Source: an uncultured virus (IMG/VR IMGVR_UViG_3300034110_001238)
Lineage: Duplodnaviria > Heunggongvirae > Uroviricota > Caudoviricetes
Length of the DNA stretch: 64,000 bases
Strand: one strand, 5' to 3'
Virus record (IMG/VR): IMGVR_UViG_3300034110_001238
Shown: piece by piece, positions 2,704 through 63,148 of the stretch
Position numbering within the stretch: the first letter of the stretch is position 1
How the letters are laid out: every line of letters begins with the position of its first letter
Notes under the pieces: generated by a model
The model's database searches: none
What the model was told of the DNA's origin: nothing
What the model saw: the letters and a program-made list of their open reading frames with translations, nothing else
Program-made: the position numbers and the translations under genes

Positions 2704-3534
2704 TTAGATAAGTGCCATTTTAATCAAACTTAAATGTTCAAGCACTTTTTTTGTATCAGTAACTTCAATGAGTTCATCCATTTTGTAGGCAACAAAAGCC
2801 TGTTTATTTAGCCGAGAACCCATTTCCAACATCCAACAAGTGAATACTAGGTTTAAATGTTCATCATCACTGAATGAATCATTCGCCTTCATATTAAATA
2901 ATTCAATGGTTTGTGTATCATCAAGTTTAACAATATTATTGGATTCAATAAGGCTGGCCTTGCCAAAATGGAAGCTGTTAGATGAATAATCATAATAGAT
3001 AACAAGACTACCACAACTGCTAAATGAAAACTCAATTTTCATGCGTGGGGTGATTTTGCCATGTTCATTAATATAGTATTGAAGGCCGATTGAACTATCA
3101 GAACGACCACTGTTGCCTAAAAAATAGAAACAGTCAATTAATGAAACGCCACGTCTATGCTCATCACTGATATCAAACATATTTTTATTAATATGACCTA
3201 ATGAATGTTTTAGAACATACTCTTTAACAAGCGGATTATCATAAAACAAATCGAATGCTTTTTGATAGATATCCAAGTATTGTTCATCATAATATTCTGG
3301 AAAATGTTGTTCACGTTCTTGTTTATATAATTGTGAGTTATTGTAACCTGAAATAATTGCACCATCTTCTTTAAGGTATTGAAAACGAGCAAGAGTTCGC
3401 TTATTAATATCTTCAATAACAACAAAGTCTATCATTTCGCCTTCAAGTTCTTCCTTATAATTGGATACTTTAAAAGGGCTTTTGTAGTGTGTCTTTAGTG
3501 TTTTATTAATATCTTTCAATGAACTTTTAATCAC
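2704..3534 (-). CDS. Hypothetical protein, paralog of 1724..2677, MxxI tail
   Basis: GTG start with GAGG SD; ends KMALI. Confidence 0.75.
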   Translation of the reverse strand: MIKSSLKDINKTLKTHYKSPFKVSNYKEELEGEMIDFVVIEDINKRTLARFQYLKEDGAIISGYNNSQLYKQEREQHFPEYYDEQYLDIYQKAFDLFYDNPLVKEYVLKHSLGHINKNMFDISDEHRRGVSLIDCFYFLGNSGRSDSSIGLQYYINEHGKITPRMKIEFSFSSCGSLVIYYDYSSNSFHFGKASLIESNNIVKLDDTQTIELFNMKANDSFSDDEHLNLVFTCWMLEMGSRLNKQAFVAYKMDELIEVTDTKKVLEHLSLIKMALI

Positions 3535-3593
3535 AATAATTCCTCATAGTAAAATAATGATTAATTATAACACAAAACAAAAAAACAGGCAAT

Positions 3594-3619
3594 AAAAAAG
3601 AGAACTATGAAGTTCTCTT
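3594..3619 (-). terminator. Intrinsic terminator of the tRNA array
   Basis: AAGAGAAC-TTCATA-GTTCTCTT plus T run on the minus strand, just after the last tRNA. Confidence 0.8.
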
Positions 3620-3628
3620 GATTTGATT

Positions 3629-3704
3629 TGGTGGAGAAGATGGGATTCGAACCCACGACCTCTTGTATGCCATACAAGCGTTCTACCAACTGAACTACGA
3701 CCCC
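3629..3704 (-). tRNA. tRNA-Ala(GGC)
   Basis: Cloverleaf; anticodon arm CTTGT-ATGGCAT-ACAAG; G3:U70; encoded CCA; two acceptor-stem mismatches. Confidence 0.85.
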
Positions 3705-3713
3705 ATAATAAAG

Positions 3714-3835
3714 TAGAAAGGAATGGATTCGAACCATTACCACTATCACATGGCCTATAAATTACTAGAATTTATCTGACATATGATTTACGTTACCGGG
3801 TCATCCCGGCTGCTCTCCCGTTAAGCTACCTTTCT
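3714..3835 (-). ncRNA. tRNA-like RNA with a non-canonical anticodon loop and a ~55-nt hairpin in the variable-arm position
   Basis: Acceptor AGAAAGG/CCTTTCT, D arm TAGCTTAACGGGAGAGC, T arm AATGG-TTCGAAT-CCATT; no encoded CCA. Confidence 0.7.
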
Positions 3836-3842
3836 ATTAATC

Positions 3843-3917
3843 TGGTGGTTCTGCAAGGAATCGAACCTTAATCATCCCGTTATGAGCGGGGTGCATTTAC
3901 CGTTATGCTACAGAACC
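3843..3917 (-). tRNA. tRNA with CAT anticodon (Met or Ile2)
   Basis: Acceptor GGTTCTG/CAGAACC; loop CT-CAT-AA; CCA. Confidence 0.85.
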
Positions 3918-3934
3918 ATAATTTACATCTAATT

Positions 3935-4011
3935 TGGTGGGACTTGTAAGACTTGAACTTACGACCTGCCGATTATGAGTCGGATGCTCTAACCAACTGA
4001 GCTAAAATCCC
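3935..4011 (-). tRNA. tRNA-Ile2(CAT), lysidine type, reads AUA (Met not excluded)
   Basis: TAGCTCAGTTGGTTAGAGCATCCGACTCATAATCGG..GGTC resembles enterobacterial tRNA-Ile2; CCA. Confidence 0.8.
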
Positions 4012-4082
4012 ATAGTGAATGAATGCCCCCGTAAACCACGGCTTCAATCCAGTCTTACCTTTACAGTAAAACTCCCTTATTC

Positions 4083-4159
4083 TGGCGTCCGTGATAGGAT
4101 TTGAACCTACGACCTTCCGCTTAGGAGGCAGACGCTCTATCCAACTGAGCTACACGGAC
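4083..4159 (-). tRNA. tRNA-Arg(CCT)
   Basis: TCTGC-CTCCTAA-GCGGA; A20 in D loop; GCCA end. Confidence 0.9.
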
Positions 4160-4169
4160 AAAACAAAAC

Positions 4170-4244
4170 TGGTGGACCGTCAGGGACTCGAACCCAGCAC
4201 TCCTGCGTGCAAGGCAGGTATTTTCCCAGCTAAACTAACAGCCC
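4170..4244 (-). tRNA. tRNA-Ala(TGC)
   Basis: CCTGC-CTTGCAC-GCAGG; G3:U70; ACCA. Confidence 0.9.
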
Positions 4245-4441
4245 ATAATAGTATTTCCGCTAACGCTTCAACGATAATAAATATCTCCACGCTTCGAGGT
4301 AACGGTAAATACTTACCGGATATACTTATCAGAAGTCATACTGCAGTGATTAAGCTGCTTCAATCATACGTGACCAGTATACTAGTTGCTAATCAGGCAA
4401 CATGTATCGTTTAAATAAGTTGAATAATCAACTAACTAATT

Positions 4442-4517
4442 TGGCATTCCCAGTAGGACTCGAACCTACAACCGATGACTTAGAAGGTCATTGCTCTTCC
4501 AGTTGAGCTATGAGAAT
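4442..4517 (-). tRNA. tRNA-Arg(TCT)
   Basis: ATGAC-CTTCTAA-GTCAT; GCCA. Confidence 0.9.
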
Positions 4518-4533
4518 ATAAAAAACTATTATT

Positions 4534-4607
4534 TGGTGGAGTCTGAAAGTTTTGACCTTTCATTTACAAGTTGCCTTGTTGTTTTCCGATAGTTAAACTA
4601 AAACCCC
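4534..4607 (-). ncRNA. tRNA-Ala-like RNA with the anticodon loop replaced by a GCAA tetraloop
   Basis: Acceptor GGGGTTT/AGACTCC-ACCA with G3:U70; arm ACAAG-GCAA-CTTGT; T arm GAAAG-GTCAAAA-CTTTC. Confidence 0.75.
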
Positions 4608-4624
4608 TTATAAAACTTTAAAAC

Positions 4625-4701
4625 TGGTGGACACATATGAGATTTGAACTCATGACATCCTGCTTGCAAGGCAGGCGTTCTACCAACTGAACTAATGGCC
4701 C
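4625..4701 (-). tRNA. tRNA-Ala(TGC)
   Basis: CCTGC-CTTGCAA-GCAGG; G3:U70; one-base bulge in acceptor stem. Confidence 0.85.
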
Positions 4702-4716
4702 ATAAAACTTATAAAC

Positions 4717-4791
4717 TGGTGGAGCTATATGGACTCGAACCATATTCTTTAGAAAAAATCCCAAGGTTTTGCCAGTTAAACTAAAAGCCCC
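4717..4791 (-). ncRNA. tRNA-Ala-like RNA with a degenerate U-rich anticodon arm
   Basis: GGGGCT...AGCTCC-ACCA acceptor, intact D and T arms; arm TTGGGATTTTTTCTAA has no 7-nt loop. Confidence 0.7.
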
Positions 4792-4808
4792 ATTGTATTA
4801 CTTAAATC

Positions 4809-4883
4809 TGGTGGACCGACAGAGAATCGAACTCTGAACTCCTGCGTGCAAGGCAAGTGTTTTCCCAGTTAAACTATCAGCCC
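4809..4883 (-). tRNA. tRNA-Ala(TGC)
   Basis: CTTGC-CTTGCAC-GCAGG; G3:U70; ACCA. Confidence 0.9.
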
Positions 4884-4903
4884 ATATCTGGTTACATCTA
4901 ATT

Positions 4904-4980
4904 TGGTGTCTACGGTTGGATTCGAACCAACGACCATCCGCTTAGAAGGCGGATGCTCTATCCAACTGAGCTACGCAGAC
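4904..4980 (-). tRNA. tRNA-Arg(TCT)
   Basis: TCCGC-CTTCTAA-GCGGA; ACCA. Confidence 0.9.
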
Positions 4981-5004
4981 ATATTTCTTTCTATACAACT
5001 AATC

Positions 5005-5079
5005 TGGTGGACCGTCAGAGAATCGAACTCTGAACATCTGCGTGCAAGGCAGGTATTTTCCCAGTTAAACTAACAGCCC
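5005..5079 (-). tRNA. tRNA-Ala(TGC)
   Basis: Near-copy of 4170..4244 and 4809..4883. Confidence 0.9.
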
Positions 5080-5120
5080 ATATTTTAAATTTGATCTAAA
5101 ACAAATCAAGCCAACAAATT

Positions 5121-5198
5121 TGGTGGAGACAAAGAGAATCGAACTCTTCACAGTCTGCGTGCAAGGCAAACTCGCCATCCCTTGGAACATGTGCCCCC
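5121..5198 (-). tRNA. tRNA-Ala(TGC) with an atypical D arm
   Basis: Acceptor GGGGGCA/TGTCTCC; loop CTTGCAC; D region CATGTTCCAAGGGATGGCG. Confidence 0.8.
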
Positions 5199-5254
5199 AT
5201 ATTTATTCTTTATGAAGTGTTTTTCTTTTTGCTTCTCAACTCTTCATGTTTAAC

Positions 5255-5283
5255 ATCATACCAACTCTTTTCTTCTTTGTCAA
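5255..5283 (-). promoter_or_regulatory. Sigma70 promoter P2, proximal to the tRNA array
   Basis: TTGACA-17 nt-TATGAT with TG extended -10. Confidence 0.8.
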
Positions 5284-5374
5284 CAACTATTTTAAATTAT
5301 TTTAAACTATTTTTCTTTTAAAATCAACAATATACATTTATTAGGGTAATACACTACCCTTCTCAAAAAGGCAT

Positions 5375-5408
5375 AAAAAAAGCCTTTGAGTTATTACCCT
5401 CAAAGGCT
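5375..5408 (-). terminator. Attenuator terminator
   Basis: AGCCTTTGAG-GGTAATAA-CTCAAAGGCT plus T6. Confidence 0.85.
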
Positions 5409-5467
5409 CCACATTCGTTTGCCAGAGGGTTTAGCGTGTGCTAACCCCTCTCAATGAGATTAGCTCA

Positions 5468-5509
5468 CTAAGATATCGCTCTGGCTCTTATAGTTAATTG
5501 AATGTTCAT
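5468..5509 (-). CDS. Leader peptide MNIQLTIRARAIS (tRNA-array attenuator)
   Basis: AGGAA SD 8 nt upstream; codons ATA AGA GCC AGA GCG ATA; followed by alternative hairpins and a terminator. Confidence 0.75.
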   Translation of the reverse strand: MNIQLTIRARAIS

Positions 5510-5537
5510 AAAATAAATTCCTATTTAATATTTTTCA

Positions 5538-5566
5538 ATTATAAACCTATTTTCAAAAAAAGTCAA
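5538..5566 (-). promoter_or_regulatory. Sigma70 promoter P1 of the leader and tRNA array
   Basis: TTGACT-17 nt-TATAAT. Confidence 0.8.
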
Positions 5567-5585
5567 TGAAATAAGATCATTTTAT

Positions 5586-6842
5586 TTAAATGGTGAATGT
5601 TTTCTCAACAATCTGTGGTTTATTGAGATATCCAGCCAAGTTTTGACCTTTTTTCTTATTATAGCATTTAGGACACCAAGACTTTCTATGTCGAATAGAT
5701 GAATAGGTTGTATTCCATGTATGTCCGTCAGCACATTCAAACATTAAAGGTGATGTTGAATTGACATAAACAGTCGAAAGAAATTTCCCACCCTTTAGTT
5801 TTGCATGAGCATGCATATCAGCCATAGGATCAACCAATTTATTCTTAGCACAATAGGGACACCATTTGTCACCATAAATAATGGAATCACTGGCTGTATC
5901 AAAAGAATGGCCCTTAGCACAAACAAAACTCTGTTTTTCTTTTAAATTTTTAACACTAACAGATAGACATTGACCACCTTTTGAACGTGCAATTTCTGAA
6001 ATTTCTTCTAATGTGTTACTTTCTCTTAGTCTCCCATTACAATAAGGACACCAATGACCCTTTTTGATAGATTTTGGTACAGCTTCCCATTCATGTCCTT
6101 TCTCACACTTCCATTTAGCTTTTGAATGGGCACCTAAATATTTAACTGATAAACATTCACCTTTCATTTTGTTTGCCAATTCTTTTAATTCATTAATTTT
6201 TGAACTTGCAAAAGGTAACTTTTTAAATTTAGTAATATGTTGTTCAGTAACTTCAACACCTAATTCTACTTTGAAAATTTCAGTTAGGTATGAAATAAAG
6301 TTTTCACGAGAATAGCCATCTTCTAAATACTTAATCTCAATAAGGTTGATATCATTAGCTGCACAAAGCGTTCTTACTTTCAAGTCGCGTTCCTGTTGGT
6401 ATTCAAATGATTTATTGGCACGGTCATGAAAATGAGGTATATAATGATAATGTTGTTCGCCATGATACTCAAAGGCAATCTTTAAATCAGCATTAAAACC
6501 ATCCAGAATACACTTTCTTTCACCATCAATGTGAAGCCATTCAGGGCTAGATCCCTTAAAGGGTTTATTAAAAACAGTTTCGAAGAATTGTCGAACAAGG
6601 TTTTCAGTTTTATTTGAGCGACATGATGGGCACCATGTGCCACGTTTAATATCATTAGGTCGTGCTGACCATTCATGATTATCAATGCATCTAAAATTCA
6701 TCTTGATATTGCTTGCCATATACTCATTATCCAAGCATTCACCACCATTTTCGGTAGCAATAGCAATGATTTCAAGATAATGATCAGCTTTCGTTTTCAA
6801 CGATTTGCTTTTATTAGGCGACAATTCAGTTTTTTTAACCAT
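5586..6842 (-). CDS. Zn-ribbon-repeat endonuclease (putative free-standing homing endonuclease)
   Basis: Four C..xHxW/F...WCPxC repeats plus a restriction-fold-like LDGFN...AFEYHGEQHY motif. Confidence 0.7.
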   Translation of the reverse strand: MVKKTELSPNKSKSLKTKADHYLEIIAIATENGGECLDNEYMASNIKMNFRCIDNHEWSARPNDIKRGTWCPSCRSNKTENLVRQFFETVFNKPFKGSSPEWLHIDGERKCILDGFNADLKIAFEYHGEQHYHYIPHFHDRANKSFEYQQERDLKVRTLCAANDINLIEIKYLEDGYSRENFISYLTEIFKVELGVEVTEQHITKFKKLPFASSKINELKELANKMKGECLSVKYLGAHSKAKWKCEKGHEWEAVPKSIKKGHWCPYCNGRLRESNTLEEISEIARSKGGQCLSVSVKNLKEKQSFVCAKGHSFDTASDSIIYGDKWCPYCAKNKLVDPMADMHAHAKLKGGKFLSTVYVNSTSPLMFECADGHTWNTTYSSIRHRKSWCPKCYNKKKGQNLAGYLNKPQIVEKTFTI

Positions 6843-8470: not shown

Positions 8471-9004
8471 TTATTTAAAAACACCAGCTTTTAACCATGT
8501 CTTATAACGTTCTTGAACCTTGTCAGATGCTTCTGGGTGTAGTTTGTCACAGACGGCTAATGTATCTTGTCCACTATCAACAACGGCTATTTTGTAGTCA
8601 AACTGTCTATCTTCGCAATCCTTTTTAGATCCCAACAAGTAAAGTCTTCTAGCGTCAGGTTGGTCGTAACCAAAATAAGCTCTGCATTCAAACGTTAATG
8701 ATTCACCTTTGTTTTGAAATGAGTAGATATTTGTTCTTGGACTATATTTACTAATGGTGGTACATGGAGATGATTCCATTGTGTAGTCATAATCTGCGAA
8801 TAAACGTTTATCACCATTTTCATTAAAGTCAGCTTGAACATACATAGTTCTCAAATAAATTTTATAATCATTCGTTGACCATTTCAAACTACCCAAGGTA
8901 GGTTCCTTCTCAACGTGTTGAGCTAAGTGATTATCAATGCTTGAACAACCTGCTCCTAAGAGTGCAATAGCAAGTGCCGAAAAAATTTTCATTGTTTGTT
9001 TCAT
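8471..9004 (-). CDS. Lipoprotein
   Basis: Start MKQTMKIF with GGAG SD; lipobox GAGC. Confidence 0.7.
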   Translation of the reverse strand: MKQTMKIFSALAIALLGAGCSSIDNHLAQHVEKEPTLGSLKWSTNDYKIYLRTMYVQADFNENGDKRLFADYDYTMESSPCTTISKYSPRTNIYSFQNKGESLTFECRAYFGYDQPDARRLYLLGSKKDCEDRQFDYKIAVVDSGQDTLAVCDKLHPEASDKVQERYKTWLKAGVFK

Positions 9005-9139
9005 TTTTATCTCCAATAATAATAAAATATTAACTGTTAACGATTTAAAGTCAAGTCTTATGCCCGGTTTGATATAGATTTTAAATGATATTGTTTTGAT
9101 GAATTTAATAAAAAAGACCACTGAGTGTGGTCTTAGTTT

Positions 9140-9745
9140 TTATTTGTAATTATTTACATCGTTTTTAATGCGTATTTCAATATAGCTTATGGTAGGATCA
9201 ATCAATTGTGGTACTGGGATAGATTCTTGTTTATACACTATCTTGTCAGGATTAACTCGTCGGGATAGTAAATAGTCAGTCGCAATACGTGCTCTTGCCT
9301 CAATAATATTAAAATTAGGGTTGTGATAAGTGCTTAAACCATCATAAACGCCTAATGTAAATTCACTAAATTCTTGATCTAACAAATTGATAGCGATTTT
9401 ATTTAATACAGTGTAACCATAACCTGTTAATTGAAATCCATTGTAACTGTAAGCTTCTGCAACAGGAATGTATAGCAATAAGTCATTGCCCTGTTTATTA
9501 ATGATAACCCCTGTTTTATCTAAGTCCTTTGTAAATTCAGCTTGTTGAGTTTCAAGGTAAGCTCGTTTCTCAATGCTCATTTCTGCTGGAATAGGGGTAG
9601 GAGCTACTACGGGTGGTGTTACCACTTGCTCATTACTGATAATTTCAGAGTATCCACTTTGTTCGGTATAATAGCTGGTCGTCACTGAACATCCACTGAC
9701 AGCTAGTGCCAGTGATGAACAGATAAATAAGGTCAACTTATTCAT
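9140..9745 (-). CDS. Lipoprotein with a degenerate OmpA-like domain
   Basis: Lipobox VSGC; GNDLLLYIP, RARIATDYL and IEIRI align with the neighbouring OmpA protein. Confidence 0.65.
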   Translation of the reverse strand: MNKLTLFICSSLALAVSGCSVTTSYYTEQSGYSEIISNEQVVTPPVVAPTPIPAEMSIEKRAYLETQQAEFTKDLDKTGVIINKQGNDLLLYIPVAEAYSYNGFQLTGYGYTVLNKIAINLLDQEFSEFTLGVYDGLSTYHNPNFNIIEARARIATDYLLSRRVNPDKIVYKQESIPVPQLIDPTISYIEIRIKNDVNNYK

Positions 9746-9751
9746 GCTAAA

Positions 9752-10405
9752 TTACTGCTGTTTGTTGATAATTTGAATCTCAACACGACGATTCGTTTGT
9801 TTACCTTGTTCAGTATTGTTGTCTGCAATTGGTTGACGTGGACCATACCCCACTGCTTGAACACGATCTTGTGCGACACCTTGTGCTACAAAGTAGTTAG
9901 CCACTGAATAGGCACGTTGTTCAGACAATACTTGGTTCTTTTCAAAAGATCCAGTGTTATCAGTGTGACCAATTACTACAATATTACTGGTATTATATTC
10001 TTTCAATGTAGTAGCGATAGAATTTAATACTGGGTAGAAAGATGCTGAAATGTCTGACTGTGCTGTTTTGAAAGTAATATTTCCCGGCATAATCAAACTA
10101 AGGTTTTCACCATCACGTTGTACCTGAACACCAGTACCTCTTAGCTGGTCAGATAATTTCTTTTCTTGAACATCAGTGTAATAACCATAACCCGCACCAC
10201 CCGCACCGCCCACGACTGCACCAATCAAAGCACCTTTTTTTCCGCCAGCCAAAGCACCCACTGCAGCACCACCGAGAGCACCGAAACCACCATATTTAGC
10301 ACTTTTTGCGGCCTGACTTTCTCCAGTGTAAGGATTGTTAGTACAACCTGCTAACCCACCCATTAAAAGTGCTGCTGTTAGAACTGATACTGTAATTTTA
10401 CGCAT
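9752..10405 (-). CDS. OmpA-family lipoprotein (YiaD-like, glycine zipper plus OmpA_C)
   Basis: Lipobox LAGC; Gly zipper; GHTDNTG, LSEQRA and NRRVEI; start reset to MRKITVS by AGGAG SD. Confidence 0.92.
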   Translation of the reverse strand: MRKITVSVLTAALLMGGLAGCTNNPYTGESQAAKSAKYGGFGALGGAAVGALAGGKKGALIGAVVGGAGGAGYGYYTDVQEKKLSDQLRGTGVQVQRDGENLSLIMPGNITFKTAQSDISASFYPVLNSIATTLKEYNTSNIVVIGHTDNTGSFEKNQVLSEQRAYSVANYFVAQGVAQDRVQAVGYGPRQPIADNNTEQGKQTNRRVEIQIINKQQ

Positions 10406-18348: not shown

Positions 18349-18810
18349 ATGTTGTAGATTGATAATAACGAATTCGACTTCATCACCAAAGAGGCTATCC
18401 TTAGCCAATACACTCAATTTGTTCCTTCGGACAAAGACTCACATTACTACATCTATTCAATTATTCGCGGCGATTTAAACATGCCAACGGGTAAGCTTGC
18501 TGCTCAAGCTGGTCACGCTTATACGGATGCATTGACAAACGCACAAGAATCGCACCCAGAAAACGTTAAACTTTACAGAAATCGTCAATCGGGCGGATCT
18601 AAGGTTACGTTAAAAGCTAAAAACGAAGATCACTTAATTAAAGCATACAACCAAGCTATTGCTGCGGGATTGCCATGTTCAATTGTTGTCGATCAAGATC
18701 ACATCTTGCCACCACACTTTGATGGTTCACCTATCATTACCGCACTCGGTATTGGTCCTTGCACTAAAGAAGAAGTGAAACAAATCACCAAGAAATTTCA
18801 GTGTGTGTAA
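18349..18810 (+). CDS. pth2: Peptidyl-tRNA hydrolase, Pth2 family, with an in-frame TAG at codon 3
   Basis: YSIIRGDLNMPTGKLAAQAGHA, KVTLK and TALGIGP; AAGGAG SD 8 nt before ATG TTG TAG, in frame with 18481. Confidence 0.85.
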
Positions 18811-45365: not shown

Positions 45366-45394
45366 TTGACTTAATCCGTCAATTGTTGTATGAT
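45366..45394 (+). promoter_or_regulatory. Sigma70 promoter of the ileS leader
   Basis: TTGACT-17 nt-TATGAT. Confidence 0.75.
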
Positions 45395-45424: not shown

Positions 45425-45487
45425 ATGAAAACCTTAAATACATTCGTAAACAGCATTATTATTATCCCTAAGTTGCCAATGAGCTAA
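45425..45487 (+). CDS. ileS leader peptide MKTLNTFVNSIIIIPKLPMS
   Basis: ATT ATT ATT ATC run between the promoter and the terminator. Confidence 0.8.
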   Translation: MKTLNTFVNSIIIIPKLPMS

Positions 45488-45509: not shown

Positions 45510-45543
45510 AAAGGCACTCGGTCAAAACCAAGTGCCTTTTTTT
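45510..45543 (+). terminator. Attenuator terminator upstream of ileS
   Basis: AAGGCACT-CGGTCAAAACCA-AGTGCCTT plus T run. Confidence 0.8.
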
Positions 45544-45586: not shown

Positions 45587-48112
45587 ATGAAATATACACT
45601 CAACATGCAAAAAGTCAGTTTCAACCTTAACGAAAAATTCTTGGATAAGTCCAGTTATCTGGAATGCTGGAATAGCCAAGAAATGAAAGACTTTTTAGAA
45701 CAACAACGTCATAAGCCTTTATTCTTGCTTCATGATGGCCCTCCATATGCGAATGGTGACCTGCATTTGGGTCATTTTACCAACAAGGTATTGAAAGATA
45801 CTGTCTTAAAATTTAAACGCCTCAATGGATACTACGCTCCCTTTAACAATGGATTTGACTGTCATGGATTACCCGTAGAATTAGCAGTAGAGAAATTGAA
45901 TAGTGGTAAAACCAATAAACAAGAATTCCTCAATCAGTGTTACCAATATTCTAATGAACAAGTCGCCAATCAATTAGCCCAGTTGAAAGAGTTTGGTATG
46001 TTGGCTGATTTTGATAATTCTTACAAGACAAATGAATTCTTCCGTGAAGCTGAGGAAATGGAAGCCGTTCTTAATTTGTTGGACAAGGACTATCTCTATC
46101 AAAAATTCAGACCTGTTCATTGGTGTAAAGACTGTCAGTCTTCTTTGGCAGAGGCTGAGGTTGAATACAAAGTCAAAACGTCCGATAGCGTAACGGTTGA
46201 ATTTAAACTCAATGATGATACTTATCTACTGGTATGGACAACAACGCCTTATACCTTACCAGCCAACCAAGCAGTTGCGTATAATAAGCGTTTTACTTAT
46301 GCCAAGTATTACAATAAAGCTCATGACAAATATTATGTCACATTGAAAAATGATGCTCTTGATTCTGAAATGGAATTTGTGACTGATGTTGATTTAGATA
46401 ATCTCGTTGTTCAAAGTCCATATAGTAAAAAAATGGTTCCTTTACTTCAAGCCGATTTTGTTGAAAATTCAGGCACTGGCTTTGTTCATGTTGCTCCATC
46501 TTTTGGGTTAGATGACTTTTATTTGGGTGAAAATCATCATCTGGATGTGAATAGCTATGTCGATAACTATGGTAAATATGACTCTGTTGAATTTCCAGAA
46601 CTACAAGGCATGAATTTGAAAGACTCTGCTGCATCTGTATTGGCTACATTACAAGCAGACAACCTTGTATTCAAATTAACCAAACTTGAGCATGAATATC
46701 CACACTGCTGGCGTCATAAGTCTCCCTTGTTCTCAAAAGCTTCGAAAGAATGGTTTATGGATCTCTCTAATGTAAAAGAAAAAGCTCTTGAAGAAGTCGA
46801 AGATGTTAGATTCTTCCCAAGCAATGGTAAGAATAGACTAACCTCTATGCTGGCTACTCGCAATAGCTGGTGTGTATCCAGAAATAGACTTTGGGGAGTT
46901 CCATTGCCAAAAGACAAGACACCCGAAGCTCTTAATGAATATAGAACGTGGGTCACCTTTGTTAAACATAACGGATTATCATCACTTTATACTGAGGACT
47001 TCTCTGCTCAAACACTTGATGTATGGTTTGATAGCGGAATGACTCATACAACTGTGATGAAAAGAAACTACGGTACCACACAATCTGATTTATACTTAGA
47101 AGGTTCTGATCAACACCGTGGATGGTTTCAATCTTCATTATTGACATCAACTGCTTTAAACAATAAAGCACCTTACAAACAAGTGTTTACACATGGATTT
47201 GTTGTAGATTCAAAAGGGATGAAGTTTTCTAAGTCATTAGGTAACTATGTCGCTTTGCAAGACTTGTTGAAACAACACAGTCCTGATGTATTAAGATTGT
47301 GGTGTCTAAACCAAGACTATCATAAAGAACTGACCTATTCGGAAAGCACATTACAAGCCGCGACTGAAATGTATAAGAAATTTAGAAATACATACAGATT
47401 CATGTTGCAAAACCTATATGATTACACACCAGAAAGCGTCTTAAAAACACAAGAGATGGACTTGTTGGATAAATATGTGCTCCATGAAACAAACGAGCTT
47501 AAAAAGACCGTTTTAAAGCTCGGTGATGAATACAAGTTTAATGAAGCCTTAACCGTTTTGTATGCTTTTTGTGATAGATTAAGTGTTCTTTACTTTGAAG
47601 CGAACAAAGACAGATTATATTGTTTAGCTCCTGACGCACCAAGAAGACGATTGACACAATCTGTTTTAAACTATGTTCAACATAATTTAATGGTATTGTT
47701 GTCTACTTACCTTCCGTATTCGACAGAAGAATACTACAGAAGCCTTAACAGCTATTCTGGGTTGAGTGTATTTATGGAAGAACTTCTTGATGATGTTACA
47801 GTTGATTTTGATCAAACCAGCTTTAATAAAGTCTTAGAACTCAGGGATGTAGCGAATAAATTGTTTGAAGAAGGTAGAACAAGCAAAGTAATGTCTAAAA
47901 ACAACGAAATGGTGCTTCACTTAAATAGCGATTTAAATGATGAACAACAAACAGTCCTATCTGTATTGTTGGGAAGTGTTAGCGTTGTTAAACATAACAA
48001 AACTGAACTGTTCAAACATGATTTCAAGAAGTGTGATCGTTGTTGGAACTACTTTAAACAGTTGTGCAACGATAACTTATGCCAGAGTTGCAATGATGTA
48101 GAAAAACAATAA
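45587..48112 (+). CDS. ileS: Isoleucyl-tRNA synthetase (type 1)
   Basis: DGPPYANGDLHLGH, WTTTP, EGSDQHRGWF, KFSKS and C-terminal CDRCW...CQSC. Confidence 0.93.
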   Translation: MKYTLNMQKVSFNLNEKFLDKSSYLECWNSQEMKDFLEQQRHKPLFLLHDGPPYANGDLHLGHFTNKVLKDTVLKFKRLNGYYAPFNNGFDCHGLPVELAVEKLNSGKTNKQEFLNQCYQYSNEQVANQLAQLKEFGMLADFDNSYKTNEFFREAEEMEAVLNLLDKDYLYQKFRPVHWCKDCQSSLAEAEVEYKVKTSDSVTVEFKLNDDTYLLVWTTTPYTLPANQAVAYNKRFTYAKYYNKAHDKYYVTLKNDALDSEMEFVTDVDLDNLVVQSPYSKKMVPLLQADFVENSGTGFVHVAPSFGLDDFYLGENHHLDVNSYVDNYGKYDSVEFPELQGMNLKDSAASVLATLQADNLVFKLTKLEHEYPHCWRHKSPLFSKASKEWFMDLSNVKEKALEEVEDVRFFPSNGKNRLTSMLATRNSWCVSRNRLWGVPLPKDKTPEALNEYRTWVTFVKHNGLSSLYTEDFSAQTLDVWFDSGMTHTTVMKRNYGTTQSDLYLEGSDQHRGWFQSSLLTSTALNNKAPYKQVFTHGFVVDSKGMKFSKSLGNYVALQDLLKQHSPDVLRLWCLNQDYHKELTYSESTLQAATEMYKKFRNTYRFMLQNLYDYTPESVLKTQEMDLLDKYVLHETNELKKTVLKLGDEYKFNEALTVLYAFCDRLSVLYFEANKDRLYCLAPDAPRRRLTQSVLNYVQHNLMVLLSTYLPYSTEEYYRSLNSYSGLSVFMEELLDDVTVDFDQTSFNKVLELRDVANKLFEEGRTSKVMSKNNEMVLHLNSDLNDEQQTVLSVLLGSVSVVKHNKTELFKHDFKKCDRCWNYFKQLCNDNLCQSCNDVEKQ

Positions 48113-52623: not shown

Positions 52624-53199
52624 ATGACACTTGAAGAAAAAATTTTAGACATTCTTAAAAAAGATAAAAAAGATGTGAGAATACCTGAACCTGACAATAA
52701 AACAGATTCAGAGATTTGGCTTTATACTCATAAAGACAAAGATAATTCATTCCAGATTTTTTTTGCAAATTTAACTGATGGAAATATGGCCCATATCAGA
52801 AGAGATGAGGACTCAGAAAATTATGATAAAGTTTTTGAAGCGTCGAATAAGGAATTCTATGATAAAATTATTGAAGTCTATGAAGAAAACATGGCTTTTT
52901 TCAATAAATATAAATCCATTATAAAAAATGATAGAAACGTTCGTATTTATCTAGAAGATCCTTATTTTTACTACAACAAGCGTTCTAAAACATTGTATGC
53001 TATTCCCACAATAAAAGTTAAAACGATTGCTGCGTCATTTTCGTTTTATCTCTATCCAAGTCAACTAAAAAAAATAAATATTGCTGTTGATAAAATTTAC
53101 GAAGATTTTTATCAGCACCTTTTTCAATGCTTTTTACAAAAACCACTGAATAAGTATTCGGAAGAAGAATTGACATTGTTCCATATGATTAAAATTTAA
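52624..53199 (+). CDS. Hypothetical protein, MxxI tail
   Basis: Ends HMIKI. Confidence 0.7.
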   Translation: MTLEEKILDILKKDKKDVRIPEPDNKTDSEIWLYTHKDKDNSFQIFFANLTDGNMAHIRRDEDSENYDKVFEASNKEFYDKIIEVYEENMAFFNKYKSIIKNDRNVRIYLEDPYFYYNKRSKTLYAIPTIKVKTIAASFSFYLYPSQLKKINIAVDKIYEDFYQHLFQCFLQKPLNKYSEEELTLFHMIKI

Positions 53200-53211
53200 G
53201 GATTCTCTAGA

Positions 53212-54000
53212 ATGAAAGAACAAGATATCAAACACATTGAAGCTATTAATGATTTTTTTGGAAAATCTATTCGCTCTGAATACAGCACTGTAAGAAATGA
53301 ACGTGGTGATTACCATGTCATGAATATTTCACCGTTTGACAATAAAATAATTCGTTGTCATTTTAAAAAGTTTGCATATCCTGTAACAATAGCGGAAACA
53401 ATCTATAAGAATAATTGTAGTTTTCATTTAACTAATATGAGCGATGTCGATGTTTCATACATTTTTAGAGACAACGATTATAATTATGATATAGTTGAAA
53501 AAGTTATCAACGCTTTATTTAAGTTAGGTCAAGAATTTAGCTTTTATACTGAAATGTCACCTATTCAAAACATTAAATTGGAAAATAACTTCAACAAGAA
53601 TGGTATTCAAAAGGCTGTAATTGTTCCAACGGTAACAAAATTGACACTTTCATCAATACTAGCGGATAAAAGTGCCAGTGGGATGCCCACAAAGAAAACG
53701 GCAATCGTTCATTTGGCGTTCATGGTTTCAAATGACAATCAACTTCACCCCGTATTAGAATTAGCAATACCCTACTCAGTCTCAAAATTTACTCGATTTT
53801 CAATTCATCTTCACCCATCCAAAAGAGATGAACAAATTAAGCATATTCCTGTTATTTTGAAAGAATTTGAAAATTTACTTATAACACATTTGGATTTTGT
53901 GTTAACCAAATTTTTAAAAATTAAGAAAAATGAATTAGCTACCATGACCTTAGAAGATAAAAAGAACTATCTATCTGTTGTTGAGATGGCTAGAATTTAA
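53212..54000 (+). CDS. Paralog array member 1
   Basis: YNY, GQEF, HPV, PY and TLEDK.NY. Confidence 0.8.
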   Translation: MKEQDIKHIEAINDFFGKSIRSEYSTVRNERGDYHVMNISPFDNKIIRCHFKKFAYPVTIAETIYKNNCSFHLTNMSDVDVSYIFRDNDYNYDIVEKVINALFKLGQEFSFYTEMSPIQNIKLENNFNKNGIQKAVIVPTVTKLTLSSILADKSASGMPTKKTAIVHLAFMVSNDNQLHPVLELAIPYSVSKFTRFSIHLHPSKRDEQIKHIPVILKEFENLLITHLDFVLTKFLKIKKNELATMTLEDKKNYLSVVEMARI

Positions 54001-54084
54001 ATTTAACGATATTAAAGAAGGTGTCAAAAAATGAATGAACCCAATTATAAAATAGCTTTTGATAAACTACTAAGTGGATATTAG

Positions 54085-54888
54085 ATGACAGAGTTCGATA
54101 AAGAAAAAAAATACAAAAAAGCTTTTCATCATTTCTTGGGAAAAATGTTAAATCCTGCTTATACAAGAATTGAGAGTGGGATGACTGATAGTTTAACGCA
54201 TATTTTAAAAAATGATAACTTTCCTAATCGCAAAGCGATTTCGTGTGTTTTCACTCATCATGCTAAATTAGAAAAAGTAGGTGAGACATATTATGATACG
54301 TCCTGCAAGTTTCAGTTTCAAAACATGCCAAGTGATGATTTAACAAAACTATTCAATAACAATACTTATAATTATGAATTAATTCAACAAGTTTTAATGG
54401 AATTTATAAAAATAGGTCAAGAATTTAAATTTTTTACAACATACACACCTATTAACGATTTTAAAATAAGTGACAGTTACAGTAAAGGCGTCTATTATTG
54501 TTCGGAATCTGTAAGAGCATTGACAAAGATAACATTAACCAGTTTGATTGCAGCAAAAACCCTCAATGGTCATGAAAAGAAAAAAACAGTCATTTATCAT
54601 CTTGGATTTAAAGTATCAGTGAATAATAGAATCGAGCCTGTCTTGAGTCTATCTATCCCTTATACAATGAACAAGTCTATGCTGGTTTCAATTAACATTC
54701 ACCCTTCAAAAAAAGAAGAAATGATAAAAACAATACCGTCAATATTAAGTGATTTCAAAATATTGTTAACTGAGCATATCGATATTCTTTTAAATAAATC
54801 GCTAAAACTCAAAAAAGCAGATATACTGAAATTAACCTTAGAAGAAAAAATGAGCTATCTGCCATTAGTAGAGATGGTTAAATTTTAA
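54085..54888 (+). CDS. Paralog array member 2
   Basis: Same motifs. Confidence 0.8.
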   Translation: MTEFDKEKKYKKAFHHFLGKMLNPAYTRIESGMTDSLTHILKNDNFPNRKAISCVFTHHAKLEKVGETYYDTSCKFQFQNMPSDDLTKLFNNNTYNYELIQQVLMEFIKIGQEFKFFTTYTPINDFKISDSYSKGVYYCSESVRALTKITLTSLIAAKTLNGHEKKKTVIYHLGFKVSVNNRIEPVLSLSIPYTMNKSMLVSINIHPSKKEEMIKTIPSILSDFKILLTEHIDILLNKSLKLKKADILKLTLEEKMSYLPLVEMVKF

Positions 54889-54912
54889 AAATTAGGACAA
54901 TAGGATTTAAAC

Positions 54913-55686
54913 ATGAATAAAGAAAATAGGTATAAAGAAGCCTTTAATAAACTGTTAGCGGCAAAAACACCAGAAAATCGTGTTGTTTACAGACAACATG
55001 GGATTCAACATGAGTTAGTGAGTATTAACGATTCAGTTAACTATTATATAAATGCTAGCTTTTATCCGAGTAGGCCAAATAGTCAAGAAATTTATCAAAC
55101 TGACTGCCAAATAAATACACGAGGTGTGCCTTATGATGTATTAAAAGACATTTTTGAATCTCAAAACTACAATTACGAACTAGTTGAAAAAGCCCTACTC
55201 GATTGCTTTGAAATAGGTCAATCATTTAGTTTCTTCAACACGATGCAAGATATCAAAAACATTAAGCTACATGACAGCTTTGATTATAGCTACGATGAGC
55301 CACGTATCACGGTTAAAAATATAAGTAAATTAAACTTAGCCAGTTTTTTGAAACCTAGAAATGATGGTAAACCACTCAACAAGGTTGTCAGTCATAGTGT
55401 TCGTTTTTTTGTAAGCGATGATAATGAAATACATCCTGTTATGTATTTAACAATTCCTTATTGTTCATCATCTAGCTTCACGATAAAAATTTACTTACAT
55501 TCATCTCAAAAAGAAAGTCAATTAAATAATTTAGAGTTGCAAATAAATGACTTTAAAAGACTGTTAGAATACCATTTAGATTTTTTGTTAAACAAAAGAA
55601 TTAAGTTAGCCAAAGATGAAATAGCTCGCCTAACATTAAAAGAAAAATTAAATTATATACCAATATTAGAAATGAACGCATTTTAG
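54913..55686 (+). CDS. Paralog array member 3
   Basis: Same motifs; ends at TAG. Confidence 0.8.
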   Translation: MNKENRYKEAFNKLLAAKTPENRVVYRQHGIQHELVSINDSVNYYINASFYPSRPNSQEIYQTDCQINTRGVPYDVLKDIFESQNYNYELVEKALLDCFEIGQSFSFFNTMQDIKNIKLHDSFDYSYDEPRITVKNISKLNLASFLKPRNDGKPLNKVVSHSVRFFVSDDNEIHPVMYLTIPYCSSSSFTIKIYLHSSQKESQLNNLELQINDFKRLLEYHLDFLLNKRIKLAKDEIARLTLKEKLNYIPILEMNAF

Positions 55687-55740
55687 TTGATTAAAGTTGT
55701 TTTTTTTGATATAATAGACCTCACGATAGAGGTTTATGAA

Positions 55741-56541
55741 ATGGATGAATCAACAATGTACTTGAATGCTTTTAATAAAATGACACAAAATTTAGTGCCT
55801 TCTGAAAATGAAATTGTTTTAACAGAAGGTGATTTTATAATGACTAATATTAAAAGTATCTATAAACATAAAGGAGAAAATACTAGCACTAGCTTACAAT
55901 ATAACTTTTATCGCTCGAATAGAGCCAAGATTCATGGACACTCATATCCATATATGTGTGAAATAATTGGTAATGATATTAAAGAAGACGTATTAAAAGA
56001 GTTTTTTAATGCTCAAAATTATAATTATCAAGCTATTCATGATACCGTTAAAGCCCTTTTTGAAATTGGTCAAAAGTTTGGCTTCTACAAAGAAATTACC
56101 GACTTAAAACATACAAAAATTGAAGAATTATACACACCTGTAAGAAAAGTTTCCAAAAGTGAGCAAAAACATTTAACAAAAATAACATTTTCTCCCATGA
56201 TGACTGAAAAACGATCAGCCGATAACTTGAAAAAGAAAGTAGCAAAAATTCATAACAACTTTTATCTTTATCAAAATAATGAGATTCAACCTATAGTCAG
56301 TATATCGTTGCCATATAGCTCATCCTACGATTTCTTGGTGAAACTAAATTTACATCCATCACAAGAAGCGGCTCAAAAAGAACATCTAGAACAGGAAAAG
56401 ATTCGTTTTTCGAAGGTCTTAGAAGAACATTTTGAAAGTGTTTTGAAAAGAAAACTTAAAATGAAAAAAGAAGATATTGCGGCCATGACTTTAGAAGAAA
56501 AATTAAATTATCTCATTGTTATAGACATGAACACAATTTGA
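55741..56541 (+). CDS. Paralog array member 4
   Basis: Same motifs; GAGG SD before MDEST. Confidence 0.8.
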   Translation: MDESTMYLNAFNKMTQNLVPSENEIVLTEGDFIMTNIKSIYKHKGENTSTSLQYNFYRSNRAKIHGHSYPYMCEIIGNDIKEDVLKEFFNAQNYNYQAIHDTVKALFEIGQKFGFYKEITDLKHTKIEELYTPVRKVSKSEQKHLTKITFSPMMTEKRSADNLKKKVAKIHNNFYLYQNNEIQPIVSISLPYSSSYDFLVKLNLHPSQEAAQKEHLEQEKIRFSKVLEEHFESVLKRKLKMKKEDIAAMTLEEKLNYLIVIDMNTI

Positions 56542-56577
56542 ATATAATCAAAAAATAAAATACTACTGGAGATATTA

Positions 56578-57396
56578 ATGAGCGAAGAACAAAACAATCT
56601 TATTCAAGTCTGTAAAGACTTTTTTAAAGATCAAGAAATTGATCAAATCAATACAGGTGAAAGCAACCATTATTTTAACAATGCTTTCATCGTAGATATA
56701 AAAGAATCTTCATCTAAGGTAATATTTAGATTTAAGGGTAAAGTTGGATATCCAAATAAATGTGTAGATTATGAAAAAGAGTGTGTTATTGGATTCGAAA
56801 ACATGAACAAAAAAACAGTAAGTGAACTCTTAGGTCCACAACAATATAATTATGCATTCATTGAAAAAGCTATAAAACATTTATATACACTGGGTGAAAA
56901 CTATAAGCTATTTAAAACGTTAAAGCCAGTTAAAAACCTTAGAATTGAACAAACCTTAGTATCAAGAGATTTGTGGACACATTACGAAAACACGCAATTT
57001 GCCAGCACACAAAATATTTCAAATATACAATTCTCAAATTTCTATAAGACTGAATTGCATAAACTAGAAAGAGGTGCAAAAAAATTGAAAGGTAAAAATA
57101 TGACCTTATGCTATCATTTTGTTGTAAGAAACAATGAACTTCATCCAATAGCAATAATTGATTATCCTGTAGCACCAAATGCCAGTATAGAACTCGCATT
57201 TGATATCCACCCTGCTCAGCAACAAGAAGCTGAAGAAAGATTGATCAAATACTCATCTGAACTAAAAGAAAGATTGATTAAACGAGTCAATCAGGTCTTA
57301 AAAAAAGAATTGCAATTTACTAATAAAACATTAGTAACGCTAACAACAGAAGATAAAATTAACTATTTGACAGTTGCTGAAATGTCGGAAATATGA
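56578..57396 (+). CDS. Paralog array member 5
   Basis: Same motifs. Confidence 0.8.
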   Translation: MSEEQNNLIQVCKDFFKDQEIDQINTGESNHYFNNAFIVDIKESSSKVIFRFKGKVGYPNKCVDYEKECVIGFENMNKKTVSELLGPQQYNYAFIEKAIKHLYTLGENYKLFKTLKPVKNLRIEQTLVSRDLWTHYENTQFASTQNISNIQFSNFYKTELHKLERGAKKLKGKNMTLCYHFVVRNNELHPIAIIDYPVAPNASIELAFDIHPAQQQEAEERLIKYSSELKERLIKRVNQVLKKELQFTNKTLVTLTTEDKINYLTVAEMSEI

Positions 57397-57426
57397 TACT
57401 GTTACTGTTAAATTATGGAGCCTTAC

Positions 57427-58272
57427 ATGAATGAAAGTCAAATAACCTGCTTAGACGCCTATTTAAAACTTTTTGAAGGAACCGCTTTTGATAAGCCTTC
57501 GTTTTACGAAGCAAACTCTAGCACAAGCACGGGTGTCGTTGGGGTTATTAAATCAAGAAATAAAGCAGTTAAGCAAAAAGAAATTGATGAAGAAAACGAA
57601 GAAATATATATGGCGTTTAGTTATAATACTGGTTATCGACAAGAAAAAGATGATTTTCAGTATAATGCTTTTTTACAGTTTTCAAATCTCAACAAGAAAT
57701 TTGTAAGTTCGCTGTTTAGTCAAGTTAATTATAATTATGAAATTGTGAATAAAGTCATCAATGATTGTTTCTTAATGGGGCAACAACATGCTTTATTTGA
57801 ATCACTTGAAACAATTAAAGATCCTGCCATTCATCATTACTTCAAAAAAGCGTATCAATTTAAAGGTATATCTCGAAAACTTATTTCAACTGAAACCAAG
57901 ATATCCGAAGTTAATTTTGCCGATTTTTTCAAAACTAAAAACAACACCAAAAATGGTAAGTTAAGAAGTCGAAGAATTACAATAGACTATAAATTTGGTA
58001 TCAGTAATGGTGTTATTCACCCACTGGCAGAAATAACATTTCCCATTTCTATCAGTGACAAAATGCTCATTACCGTTGATATTCATCCAGATGGTCAAGC
58101 GTTTAATGAACGACAACTCGAAAAAACAATGTCTAAGTTAAATATCGTATTAAAAGAAAGAGTTGATATGATTTTAAGAAAAGAATTAAAATTAAAAAAT
58201 AAATATTTATCAACGTTAACTTTTGAAGATAAATTGAATTACTTGAAAGTTGCTGAAATGTCCATGATTTAA
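57427..58272 (+). CDS. Paralog array member 6
   Basis: Same motifs. Confidence 0.8.
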   Translation: MNESQITCLDAYLKLFEGTAFDKPSFYEANSSTSTGVVGVIKSRNKAVKQKEIDEENEEIYMAFSYNTGYRQEKDDFQYNAFLQFSNLNKKFVSSLFSQVNYNYEIVNKVINDCFLMGQQHALFESLETIKDPAIHHYFKKAYQFKGISRKLISTETKISEVNFADFFKTKNNTKNGKLRSRRITIDYKFGISNGVIHPLAEITFPISISDKMLITVDIHPDGQAFNERQLEKTMSKLNIVLKERVDMILRKELKLKNKYLSTLTFEDKLNYLKVAEMSMI

Positions 58273-58283
58273 TCGGAGTATCT

Positions 58284-59072
58284 ATGATCAATGCAGATGT
58301 GGTATTAGCAGCCTATCATGAGATGTTTGATAATACATCCTTTGAAAAGTATTTAAGTCCCAAAGACAAGTATTCCATTTATGAAGTTGTAGGCATTGAT
58401 GAAACAGTTAAATACAATACCAGTACCGTAGCCTGTGTGTTTGCTAAACCTCAACGATTGATTCCCAATATGTTGTATGAATATCATTGTTCGATGAAAT
58501 TTAGATATGTAGAAAATGAAACCATTGATCAGTTATTTGGAAATAAAAACTATGACTATACTTATGTCAGTAATGTTTTTAATGAGTTCAATATTATTGG
58601 CGAACGTTATGGATTTGTCAAAAAAATTGAAATAAAAGATTATTCAGTAGAAGGACAATTTAAAAGTATATTGATTGAAAAAAATAGCTCATTCAAACCG
58701 GCTGGTGTCGTTACTCTTTCAAATGCATTGGTTCAATTCGATCCAGATTATAAAAAAATGGTGTATGCTTGTACAATCAATATCGAGTTGACATTCATAG
58801 TTAAGAATAACAAATTACAGCCAGTATTGATAGTTTCCTATCCTGTATCTGCAAAAAAACGTTACTACCTATATTTAAACATTCATCAGGATAACAAATG
58901 CAATCAAAAAATAGAATTGTTAGAATTTAAAAATGGTTATGAAGTCAAAGTTAAAGAACATATGGATGTTTTACTAAAAAATAATTTTAAAATGACAGTG
59001 GCTGATTTAAAACAACTAACGATGGACGATAAAATAGACTACATGAAAATTATTGAAATGGGCACTATTTAA
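58284..59072 (+). CDS. Paralog array member 7
   Basis: Same motifs. Confidence 0.8.
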   Translation: MINADVVLAAYHEMFDNTSFEKYLSPKDKYSIYEVVGIDETVKYNTSTVACVFAKPQRLIPNMLYEYHCSMKFRYVENETIDQLFGNKNYDYTYVSNVFNEFNIIGERYGFVKKIEIKDYSVEGQFKSILIEKNSSFKPAGVVTLSNALVQFDPDYKKMVYACTINIELTFIVKNNKLQPVLIVSYPVSAKKRYYLYLNIHQDNKCNQKIELLEFKNGYEVKVKEHMDVLLKNNFKMTVADLKQLTMDDKIDYMKIIEMGTI

Positions 59073-63102: not shown

Positions 63103-63148
63103 ACCATAAGACAATATTTCGGTATTGTCTTTTTTTTGGGAGGTCATC

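Follow-up and report, generated by a model that had tools for sequence, protein, structure and literature searches.

A Probable Leader-Peptide Attenuator with Control Codons Matching the Downstream tRNA Array in an Uncultured Virus

Introduction

Can an array of tRNA genes be switched on by the scarcity of the very tRNAs that it encodes? tRNA genes are usually regarded as constitutive or growth-rate controlled, and the spare tRNA arrays found in phages and plasmids are currently seen either as aids to codon usage or as counters to tRNA-cleaving defences. The question is raised by a locus in an uncultured virus assigned to the Caudoviricetes (IMG/VR record IMGVR_UViG_3300034110_001238), of which a stretch of 64,000 nucleotides, hereafter called the window, was analyzed. 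Upstream of an array of tRNA genes on the minus strand, a preliminary description made from the sequence alone had recognized a short leader open reading frame (ORF) containing codons read by the tRNAs of the array, followed by mutually exclusive RNA helices and a terminator, and had read the whole as an attenuator of the his and trp type. From the computational analysis reported here, we conclude that the minus-strand segment 5566-5372 is probably a functional ribosome-mediated leader-peptide transcription attenuator, which gates read-through into the array located at 5196-3629.

Results

A Leader Unit Upstream of the tRNA Array

Ahead of the array, the locus possesses its own promoter (P1), a short ORF led by a Shine-Dalgarno (SD) motif near the 5' end of the transcript, and an intrinsic terminator (Table 1). 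All of these elements, as given in the preliminary description, were retrieved by reading the sequence and by a scan for promoters and terminators. P1 begins 19 nt past the stop codon of an upstream HNH endonuclease ORF (6842-5586). Together with a second promoter, P2, situated directly upstream of the array, it ranked at the top of the 22 promoter-like sites present between positions 3000 and 7200. SD-like motifs were found ahead of 42 of the 71 window ORFs, compared with 7% at random positions, and the leader ORF is presumably translated.

The array contains five tRNA-Ala(TGC) genes, one Ala(GGC), two Arg(TCT), one Arg(CCT), two genes with a CAT anticodon and a weak or degenerate Lys(TTT), according to ARAGORN. 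One of the CAT tRNAs (4011-3935) was closest to Escherichia coli genes annotated as tRNA-Ile (83%), which fits an assignment to Ile2, and the other one resembled phage tRNA-Met. P2 starts 88 nt beyond the attenuator terminator (spacer 5371-5284). Apart from that terminator, the only terminator-like site on this strand between 7200 and 3000 was the one closing the array. As no terminator lies between position 5372 and the end of the array, transcripts reading through from P1 would reach the tRNAs.

The Control Codons Correspond to the Downstream tRNAs

Six consecutive codons near the end of the leader ORF form a block, hereafter the control block, of Ile, Arg and Ala codons. Their readers, which had been named beforehand as tRNA-Ile2(CAT), Arg(TCT), Ala(GGC) and Ala(TGC), are all present in the array, the first by similarity and the others by the ARAGORN calls. 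The probability of such a correspondence was computed from the codon usage of the window itself. The presence of 6 codons of the array decoding set among 12 sense codons had a probability of 0.021 with a broad definition of this set and of 2.4e-4 with a narrow one. For a run of six consecutive matching codons, the values were 5e-4 (broad) and 2.8e-6 (narrow), and 8e-5 when the match was evaluated at the amino-acid level.

Mutually Exclusive Helices and the Position of the Ribosome

Helices A, B and C, the terminator and the pairing that closes over the control codons had been proposed in the preliminary description; each was confirmed base by base and its energy computed (Table 1). Hairpin H1, absent from that list, has to be added to them. 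This hairpin extends over the final sense codon and the stop codon and belongs to the minimum free energy (MFE) structure; on ribosome-free RNA, it sequesters the 5' strand of helix A (segment 1). The whole leader RNA folded at -49.3 kcal/mol, compared with -29.65 +/- 3.52 kcal/mol for shuffled sequences (z = -5.58), and none of the 200 shuffles was as stable. The MFE structure consists of a stable three-way junction followed by the terminator.

The effect of the ribosome was followed on transcripts of increasing length in which the covered segments were constrained. When the transcript ended at 5440, helix A was the MFE structure for a ribosome with GCC, the second AGA or GCG in its A site (masks 5472-5466, for a footprint of +13). 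Placing the A site on the second ATA left a 7-bp remnant of this helix (-4.7 kcal/mol), and placing the ribosome at the stop codon abolished it; without ribosome, H1 was the best fold. When the transcript ended at 5396 or 5392, A and C together made up the MFE structure for ribosome masks 5476-5467, which take in the first ATA and the first AGA if the footprint reaches +15. At these two lengths, B was the MFE structure both for ribosome-free RNA and for RNA carrying a ribosome at the stop codon.

We propose the following model for the functioning of the element. P1 would start an RNA of about 160 nt, the 13-codon ORF of which would be translated during transcription. With fast translation, the ribosome arriving at the stop codon would cover segment 1, B and then the terminator would form, and transcription would end. 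The same outcome would be expected in the complete absence of translation, with H1 sequestering segment 1 while B and the terminator form. Slow decoding of the ATA, AGA, GCC, AGA and GCG codons would hold the ribosome at a place where it melts the 5' arm of H1, and segment 1 would stay free. Free segment 1 would then pair with segment 2 to give helix A, and segment 3 with the 5' arm of the terminator to give C. With C formed, the RNA polymerase would read on through P2 into the array. Because the array encodes the tRNAs for the control codons, this arrangement would amount to a negative feedback, in which more tRNA leads to fast decoding and termination is restored. The signal sensed would presumably be the shortage or cleavage of tRNAs rather than amino-acid supply, and candidate natural triggers may be a mismatch with the codon usage of the host, tRNA depletion or the attack of an anticodon nuclease.

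Table 1. Position of the leader unit, its alternative RNA helices, the tRNA array and the related genes. Coordinates refer to the window unless G001 (the relative described below) or another sequence is named.
Feature	Position	Strand	Description
Promoter P1	5538..5566	(-)	TTGACT-17-TATAAT, 11/12 consensus matches; 29/29 identical in G001
Shine-Dalgarno AGGAA	5518..5522	(-)	8 nt ahead of leader ATG 5509
Leader ORF	5468..5509	(-)	13 sense codons + TAG (5470-5468), peptide MNIQLTIRARAIS; 42/42 identical in G001
Control block	5474..5491	(-)	Six codons: 2x ATA, 2x AGA, GCC, GCG (I-R-A-R-A-I)
Closing helix	5485-5479/5427-5421	(-)	7 bp, -9.3 kcal/mol; pairs control codons
Hairpin H1	5473-5464/5458-5449	(-)	10 bp, -10.5 kcal/mol; spans last sense codon and stop; in MFE structure
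Helix A (segments 1:2)	5464-5456/5448-5440	(-)	9 bp, -11.2 kcal/mol; alternative to H1 and B
Helix B (segments 2:3)	5451-5440/5435-5424	(-)	11/12 positions paired, -16.3 kcal/mol; holds antiterminator strand
Antiterminator C (segments 3:4)	5430-5421/5407-5396	(-)	6+3 bp, -12.9 kcal/mol
Intrinsic terminator	5372..5410	(-)	12-bp stem (5410-5379), 8-nt loop, U run to 5372; -18.1 kcal/mol
Promoter P2	5255..5283	(-)	TTGACA-17-TATGAT, extended -10 (TG), 11/12; directly upstream of array
tRNA array	3629..5196	(-)	12 tRNAs by ARAGORN
Array-closing terminator	3598..3619	(-)	Besides that of the attenuator, sole terminator-like site on this strand, 7200-3000
IleRS leader promoter	45366-45394	(+)	TTGACT-17-TATGAT
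IleRS leader ORF	45425-45487	(+)	20 codons, four consecutive Ile (IIII)
IleRS leader terminator	45513-45543	(+)	Hairpin + U run
IleRS gene	45587-48112	(+)	TIGR00392, 653 bits vs cut-off 621
Non-discriminating AspRS	G001 5308-6576		NF003483, 428 bits; leader with DNNDN at L224 6799-6632 (-)
ProRS	G001 62396-63526		TIGR00409, 338 bits; leader with P-L-P at L227 2169-2331 (+)
RNA/tRNA maintenance gene set	334-786, 18481-18810; G001 8791-10227, 95908-98259		

Conservation of the Leader in a Relative

A search with a 30-mer of the leader led to one IMG/VR record, G001 (181 kb, labelled as a provirus), and to one metagenome contig of 1.86 Mb, identical to G001 over the stretch compared. The same 30-mer, as well as the same stretch with a free loop, had no match in the species-representative genomes. 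Protein-anchored scans returned only record G001 again, and the core of P2 only its two copies in G001. A P2 17-mer gave more than 123 matches, and among the 80 loci listed none was P2-like beyond the seed (75 of 144 positions for the best one). Part of the stretch is contained in public sequencing runs of 17 studies; the DNA runs X4 and X2, in which the variant is that of G001, do not provide independent evidence.

Overall identity between G001 and the window is about 88% in this region, with a very unequal distribution of the differences. The leader unit (5585-5372) was identical at all of its 214 positions, including the 39 of the terminator. By comparison, identity was 87.4% in the HNH ORF upstream of the leader, 89.8% in the spacer between the terminator and P2, and 97-100% in the tRNAs of the array. 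The leader therefore appears to be as constrained as the tRNAs. Conservation of the leader in relatives, on which the preliminary description had made its reading depend, was thus observed in G001.

A Different Leader Heads the Leu Array of the Relative

G001 possesses a second array, which comprises 11 tRNA-Leu genes (anticodons TAA, CAA, CAG, AAG and TAG), one tRNA-Gln and one odd tRNA-like gene. It is headed by a paralogous P2 cassette, 86% identical over about 120 nt, upstream of which are located a P1-like promoter, a GAGGA motif, a 20-codon ORF and a terminator (L085 1686-1670). The peptide of this leader, MFTTIRLSLLLLSSLLLSLG, is specified by 19 sense codons, nine of which are Leu codons (p = 2.1e-5), and all six Leu codons are used (p = 0.038). 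The window and Leu leaders are not alignable, the similarity of the two modules starting only at the U run of the terminator. Codons of the Ala/Arg/Ile set account for 6 of 12 in the window leader versus none of 19 in the Leu leader (Fisher p = 0.0013).

Without ribosome, the full-length MFE structure of the Leu leader contained the terminator. When Leu codons from 1808 to 1784 occupied the A site (masks 1795-1771), the terminator gave way to an antiterminator of 16 bp, and it returned once the A site had moved to the last Leu codon or the stop codon. This off/on/off pattern was observed in none of 300 shuffles, and the energy of the antiterminator duplex (-25.6 kcal/mol) was reached by 1 of 2000. 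In silico, the Leu leader follows the textbook behaviour of an attenuator, even for the full-length RNA at equilibrium. The co-variation of leader codons and array anticodons in relatives, suggested in the preliminary description as a check, was borne out by this second array, which has a switching leader rich in Leu codons.

Leaders on Aminoacyl-tRNA Synthetase Genes

The search for synthetases (Pfam) covered 72 of the 78 window ORFs of at least 100 aa and 110 ORFs of at least 110 aa in the part of G001 outside the window. Genes for isoleucyl- (IleRS), aspartyl- (AspRS) and prolyl-tRNA synthetase (ProRS) were found, and all three are preceded by a promoter, a short ORF with cognate codons and a terminator. 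A near-copy of the terminator 3' arm is present in the tail of each of these ORFs. Under the amino-acid usage of G001, the chance probability was approximately 8e-4 for the four consecutive Ile, approximately 8e-4 for five consecutive Asp or Asn, and 0.085 for at least two Pro. In the IleRS leader, the ORF of which shows one synonymous change in the G001 ortholog, the ORF tail paired in silico with the 5' arm of the terminator to form an antiterminator when the ribosome was on the first Ile codon. The predicted fold of the ProRS leader flipped from antiterminator to terminator once the A site was at the second Pro codon.

Counting the two arrays and the three synthetases, cognate leaders were observed on all five translation-supply units found in the replicon: in the window, in the Leu array and in the synthetase leaders, the regulatory codons are cognate to the downstream supply. 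It is conceivable, though it falls somewhat short of being probable, that these units form a modular regulon in which each synthetase gene and each isotype-sorted array has its own codon-matched leader-peptide sensor. Such a regulon would let a large phage or symbiont detect, codon by codon, which host tRNAs are scarce or cleaved by anticodon nucleases, and replace precisely these.

Other short ORFs neighbouring terminators, in the window or in G001, were considered and set aside, most of them being located within genes or at the ends of convergent genes; the next gene was looked up at 8 of the 19 terminator sites flagged in G001.

Discussion

Weighing the Attenuator Against Other Explanations

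Several results weigh against an attenuator at 5566-5372. The terminator was in the MFE structure of the full-length window leader at every ribosome position tried. C being weaker than this terminator, the model needs kinetic trapping, and A and C would presumably be trapped in this way on the nascent RNA. The dependence on ribosome position put forward in the preliminary description was recovered on growing transcripts with the covered segments constrained, but not on the full-length RNA, where the terminator wins at equilibrium. The antiterminator duplex alone was reached by 241 of 2000 shuffles, which is not beyond chance, and the off/on/off folding pattern was seen in 9-15 of 400 shuffles. 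On RNA ending at 5436, the MFE structure was an extended form of helix A even without ribosome, so that at this length the no-ribosome state is not cleanly distinct from the stalled state. The second promoter below the terminator, already pointed out as a caveat, stands with its 11 matches to the 12 consensus positions, and its location between the attenuator and the array means that the array need not depend on read-through from P1. The codon match is only partial: AGG (for Arg-CCT), an internal ATG and Lys codons are all missing from the window leader, and the Leu leader contains four Ser codons but lacks a Gln codon, whereas its array includes a tRNA-Gln and no tRNA-Ser. The comparison between leaders and arrays rests on two tRNA-array modules only. 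The sole accessible ortholog being identical, no compensatory changes could be scored. Contigs from runs labelled as RNA cover the element (X16 record 16 spans 5354-5589, and X15 record 6 spans 5232-5754, across the terminator), but they reveal neither the strand nor where transcripts end, they may come from DNA carry-over, and nothing is inferred from them.

The segment from P1 to the terminator might instead be a self-contained small gene, producing a structured small RNA (sRNA) or the mRNA of a 13-residue peptide. The terminator would then act as an insulator, P2 alone would drive the array and the codon match would be incidental. Owing to P2 and to the weak antiterminator, this is the serious rival of the attenuator, and we regard it as unlikely. 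It accommodates the strong consensus promoter immediately ahead of the array, the stability of the three-way junction and terminator, the persistence of the terminator in the full-length MFE structure in all ribosome states and an antiterminator duplex that does not exceed chance. Attenuator RNAs can moreover act in trans, according to the accessible parts of two publications (PMC7968998, PMC7298713). On the other hand, a small gene does not account for an unrelated Leu-rich leader that precedes a Leu array and switches in silico, for three synthetase genes with cognate leaders, or for the significant cross-match between the two leaders, neither of which matches any Rfam family. If the element is an attenuator, as we prefer to think, read-through from P1 would presumably matter beside the output of P2.

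A true attenuator could also sense amino-acid supply, through the charging of tRNAs with Ala, Arg, Ile or Leu, the arrays and synthetases then constituting a starvation regulon. The attenuation of trp and his does not tell uncharged tRNA from missing tRNA, a distinction that attenuation alone cannot make, and the IIII, DNNDN and P-L-P synthetase leaders fit a classical sensing of charged tRNA. However, extra tRNA does not relieve starvation, and such a circuit would therefore be of no obvious benefit. The choice of AGA and ATA over CGT and ATT, which are also frequent, and the use of all six Leu codons fit sensing at the level of isoacceptors. We consider amino-acid sensing quite unlikely and favour the sensing of tRNA shortage or cleavage proposed above.

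That the three-way junction is a degenerate tRNA-like remnant or a processing signal at the head of the array, with an accidental ORF, is highly improbable: the 7-bp closing helix followed by an unpaired A and two hairpins does recall a shortened cloverleaf, and the array holds other degenerate tRNA-like pieces, but no tRNA-like match was found at 5375-5566 (Rfam at E <= 10; ARAGORN), the loops do not have the size expected of an anticodon or T arm, and the promoter, the SD motif, the codon match and the Leu and synthetase leaders would be left unexplained.

Comparison with Known Systems

The window element has the same organization as the trp, his, leu, thr, ilv and pheA attenuators of enterobacteria: a short ORF with regulatory codons, a stop codon beside the first switching segment, exclusive helices and a terminator. 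The thr and ilv leaders carry mixed codon blocks, which the I-R-A-R-A-I block of the window resembles. Three differences are visible. The attenuators of amino-acid operons regulate biosynthetic enzymes, whereas tRNA genes lie downstream here, so that the sensed species would be the product itself; the chain has five segments (H1, A, B, C and the terminator) instead of the classical four; and, unlike in the classical cases, a second promoter is situated behind the terminator. A general description of leader-peptide attenuators is given in the accessible part of PMC1183508. In Rfam searches of the window between 3400 and 5900 at E <= 10, the sole match in the leader was Ms_IGR-8 (15.8 bits), on the terminator hairpin. 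The best match of the Leu leader was an unrelated sRNA (15.3 bits, E = 1.6). The element would work like the Leu, His, Thr and Trp leader families of Rfam without being a member of them.

In E. coli, the pheM leader controls the pheST operon for phenylalanyl-tRNA synthetase. This attenuator acts on a gene of the translation apparatus and is of the same type as the IleRS, AspRS and ProRS leaders. It differs in that pheST is a protein-coding operon and a single case in E. coli, whereas three synthetases and two tRNA arrays are found here in one replicon. Phe-rich leaders ahead of pheV and pheU of E. coli, which we considered as possible precedents, were discarded, as the upstream regions of about 100 nt in strain K-12 have a promoter and no such ORF.

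T-box riboswitches likewise couple translation-supply genes to one specific tRNA through the choice between terminator and antiterminator. A T-box binds uncharged tRNA directly and without an ORF, whereas the window element has an SD-led ORF and neither a specifier nor a T-box sequence; no T-box match was obtained in the Rfam searches of 3400-5900.

A spare array with a known switch is found in Anabaena sp. PCC 7120. As far as the accessible portions of PMC8421152 and PMC10272220 go, its trn array is silent and is induced under translational stress, the operon being controlled by promoter repeats and the repressor TrcR. It is likewise a spare tRNA array that is switched on when translation is impaired, with the difference that these portions describe a global stress signal and not a codon-specific sensor. 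The terms "attenuat-", "leader" and "terminator" do not occur in PMC8421152. In the literature searched, which left most subscription journals and old scans outside its coverage, no leader-peptide attenuation of tRNA genes or arrays was found, and the Anabaena trn array was the one regulated spare tRNA array found in print. Leader-peptide control is known for amino-acid genes and has apparently not been described for tRNA genes.

If the attenuator is confirmed, it would represent a direct and protein-free feedback sensor of the decoding capacity for individual codons, and leaders of this kind would provide synthetic biology with ready-made codon-specific sensors. The composition of a short ORF, compared with the anticodons encoded downstream, would then be a signature from which to predict the tRNAs whose loss a mobile element anticipates in its host.

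The Replicon and Other Features of the Locus

The replicon, which may be that of a huge phage or of a cell, has bacterial expression signals (SD motifs, sigma-70-type promoters and intrinsic terminators), and about two-thirds of the ORFs submitted had no Pfam family. Some proteins are jumbo-phage-like, among them a radical-SAM protein 44-50% identical to jumbo-phage proteins. Among the 80 best genome loci, no sequence exceeded 43% identity to the IleRS, and this comparison brought out no close cellular relative. No small-subunit ribosomal RNA was found in the 181 kb of G001, and no match to Terminase_6C was found. G001 is labelled as a provirus, yet its sequence also lies within the 1.86-Mb metagenome contig. 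Some genes of the window and G001 look cellular or eukaryote-like, namely those for GAPDH, asparagine synthase, a Ser/Thr kinase, a NIF phosphatase, Fpg and UvdE.

Several genes of the window and G001 are concerned with RNA or tRNA maintenance. They encode a HAD "Swiss Army Knife" RNA repair domain, a PTH2 peptidyl-tRNA hydrolase, an RtcB ligase and a T4 Rnl1-like ligase-phosphoesterase fusion. The presence of these four genes fits a concern with tRNA damage and proves nothing.

The cassette containing P2 (5221-5322) is multicopy in relatives, with a depth of 660-800 in run X4 compared with about 59 in the flanking sequence, and matches on several long contigs. This read depth suggests some 11-13 copies of the cassette, and about a dozen arrays in the full genome.

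Additional features were observed inside the arrays. A tRNA-like element interrupted by roughly 50 inserted nt, located at 3714-3835 (-), was recognized by Rfam (41.7 bits) and missed by ARAGORN. The weak Lys-TTT call corresponds to 4717-4791 (-), for which ARAGORN gives an undetermined tRNA in G001. Two unannotated stretches, 4518-4628 (-) of 111 nt and 4245-4441 (-) of 197 nt, are both about 95% conserved. About 570 additional bases (L001 4370-4942) separate the Arg-CCT gene from the Ile2-like tRNA gene in the relative and have no counterpart in the window (4082/4083). In the Leu array, one Leu-like tRNA (L094 3176-3261, minus strand) has an anticodon loop of eight bases, and ARAGORN assigns to it the four-base anticodon cgct.

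The ORF that adjoins P1 (5586-6842, minus strand) resembles HNH/zinc-ribbon homing endonucleases. One of the RNA-labelled contigs is unlike the window upstream of the leader, so that the HNH gene may be a mobile insertion beside the conserved leader. Finally, eight tandem ORFs of 191-285 aa at 52624-59072 (+), none of which has a Pfam or PHROG match, look like a local family of paralogs.

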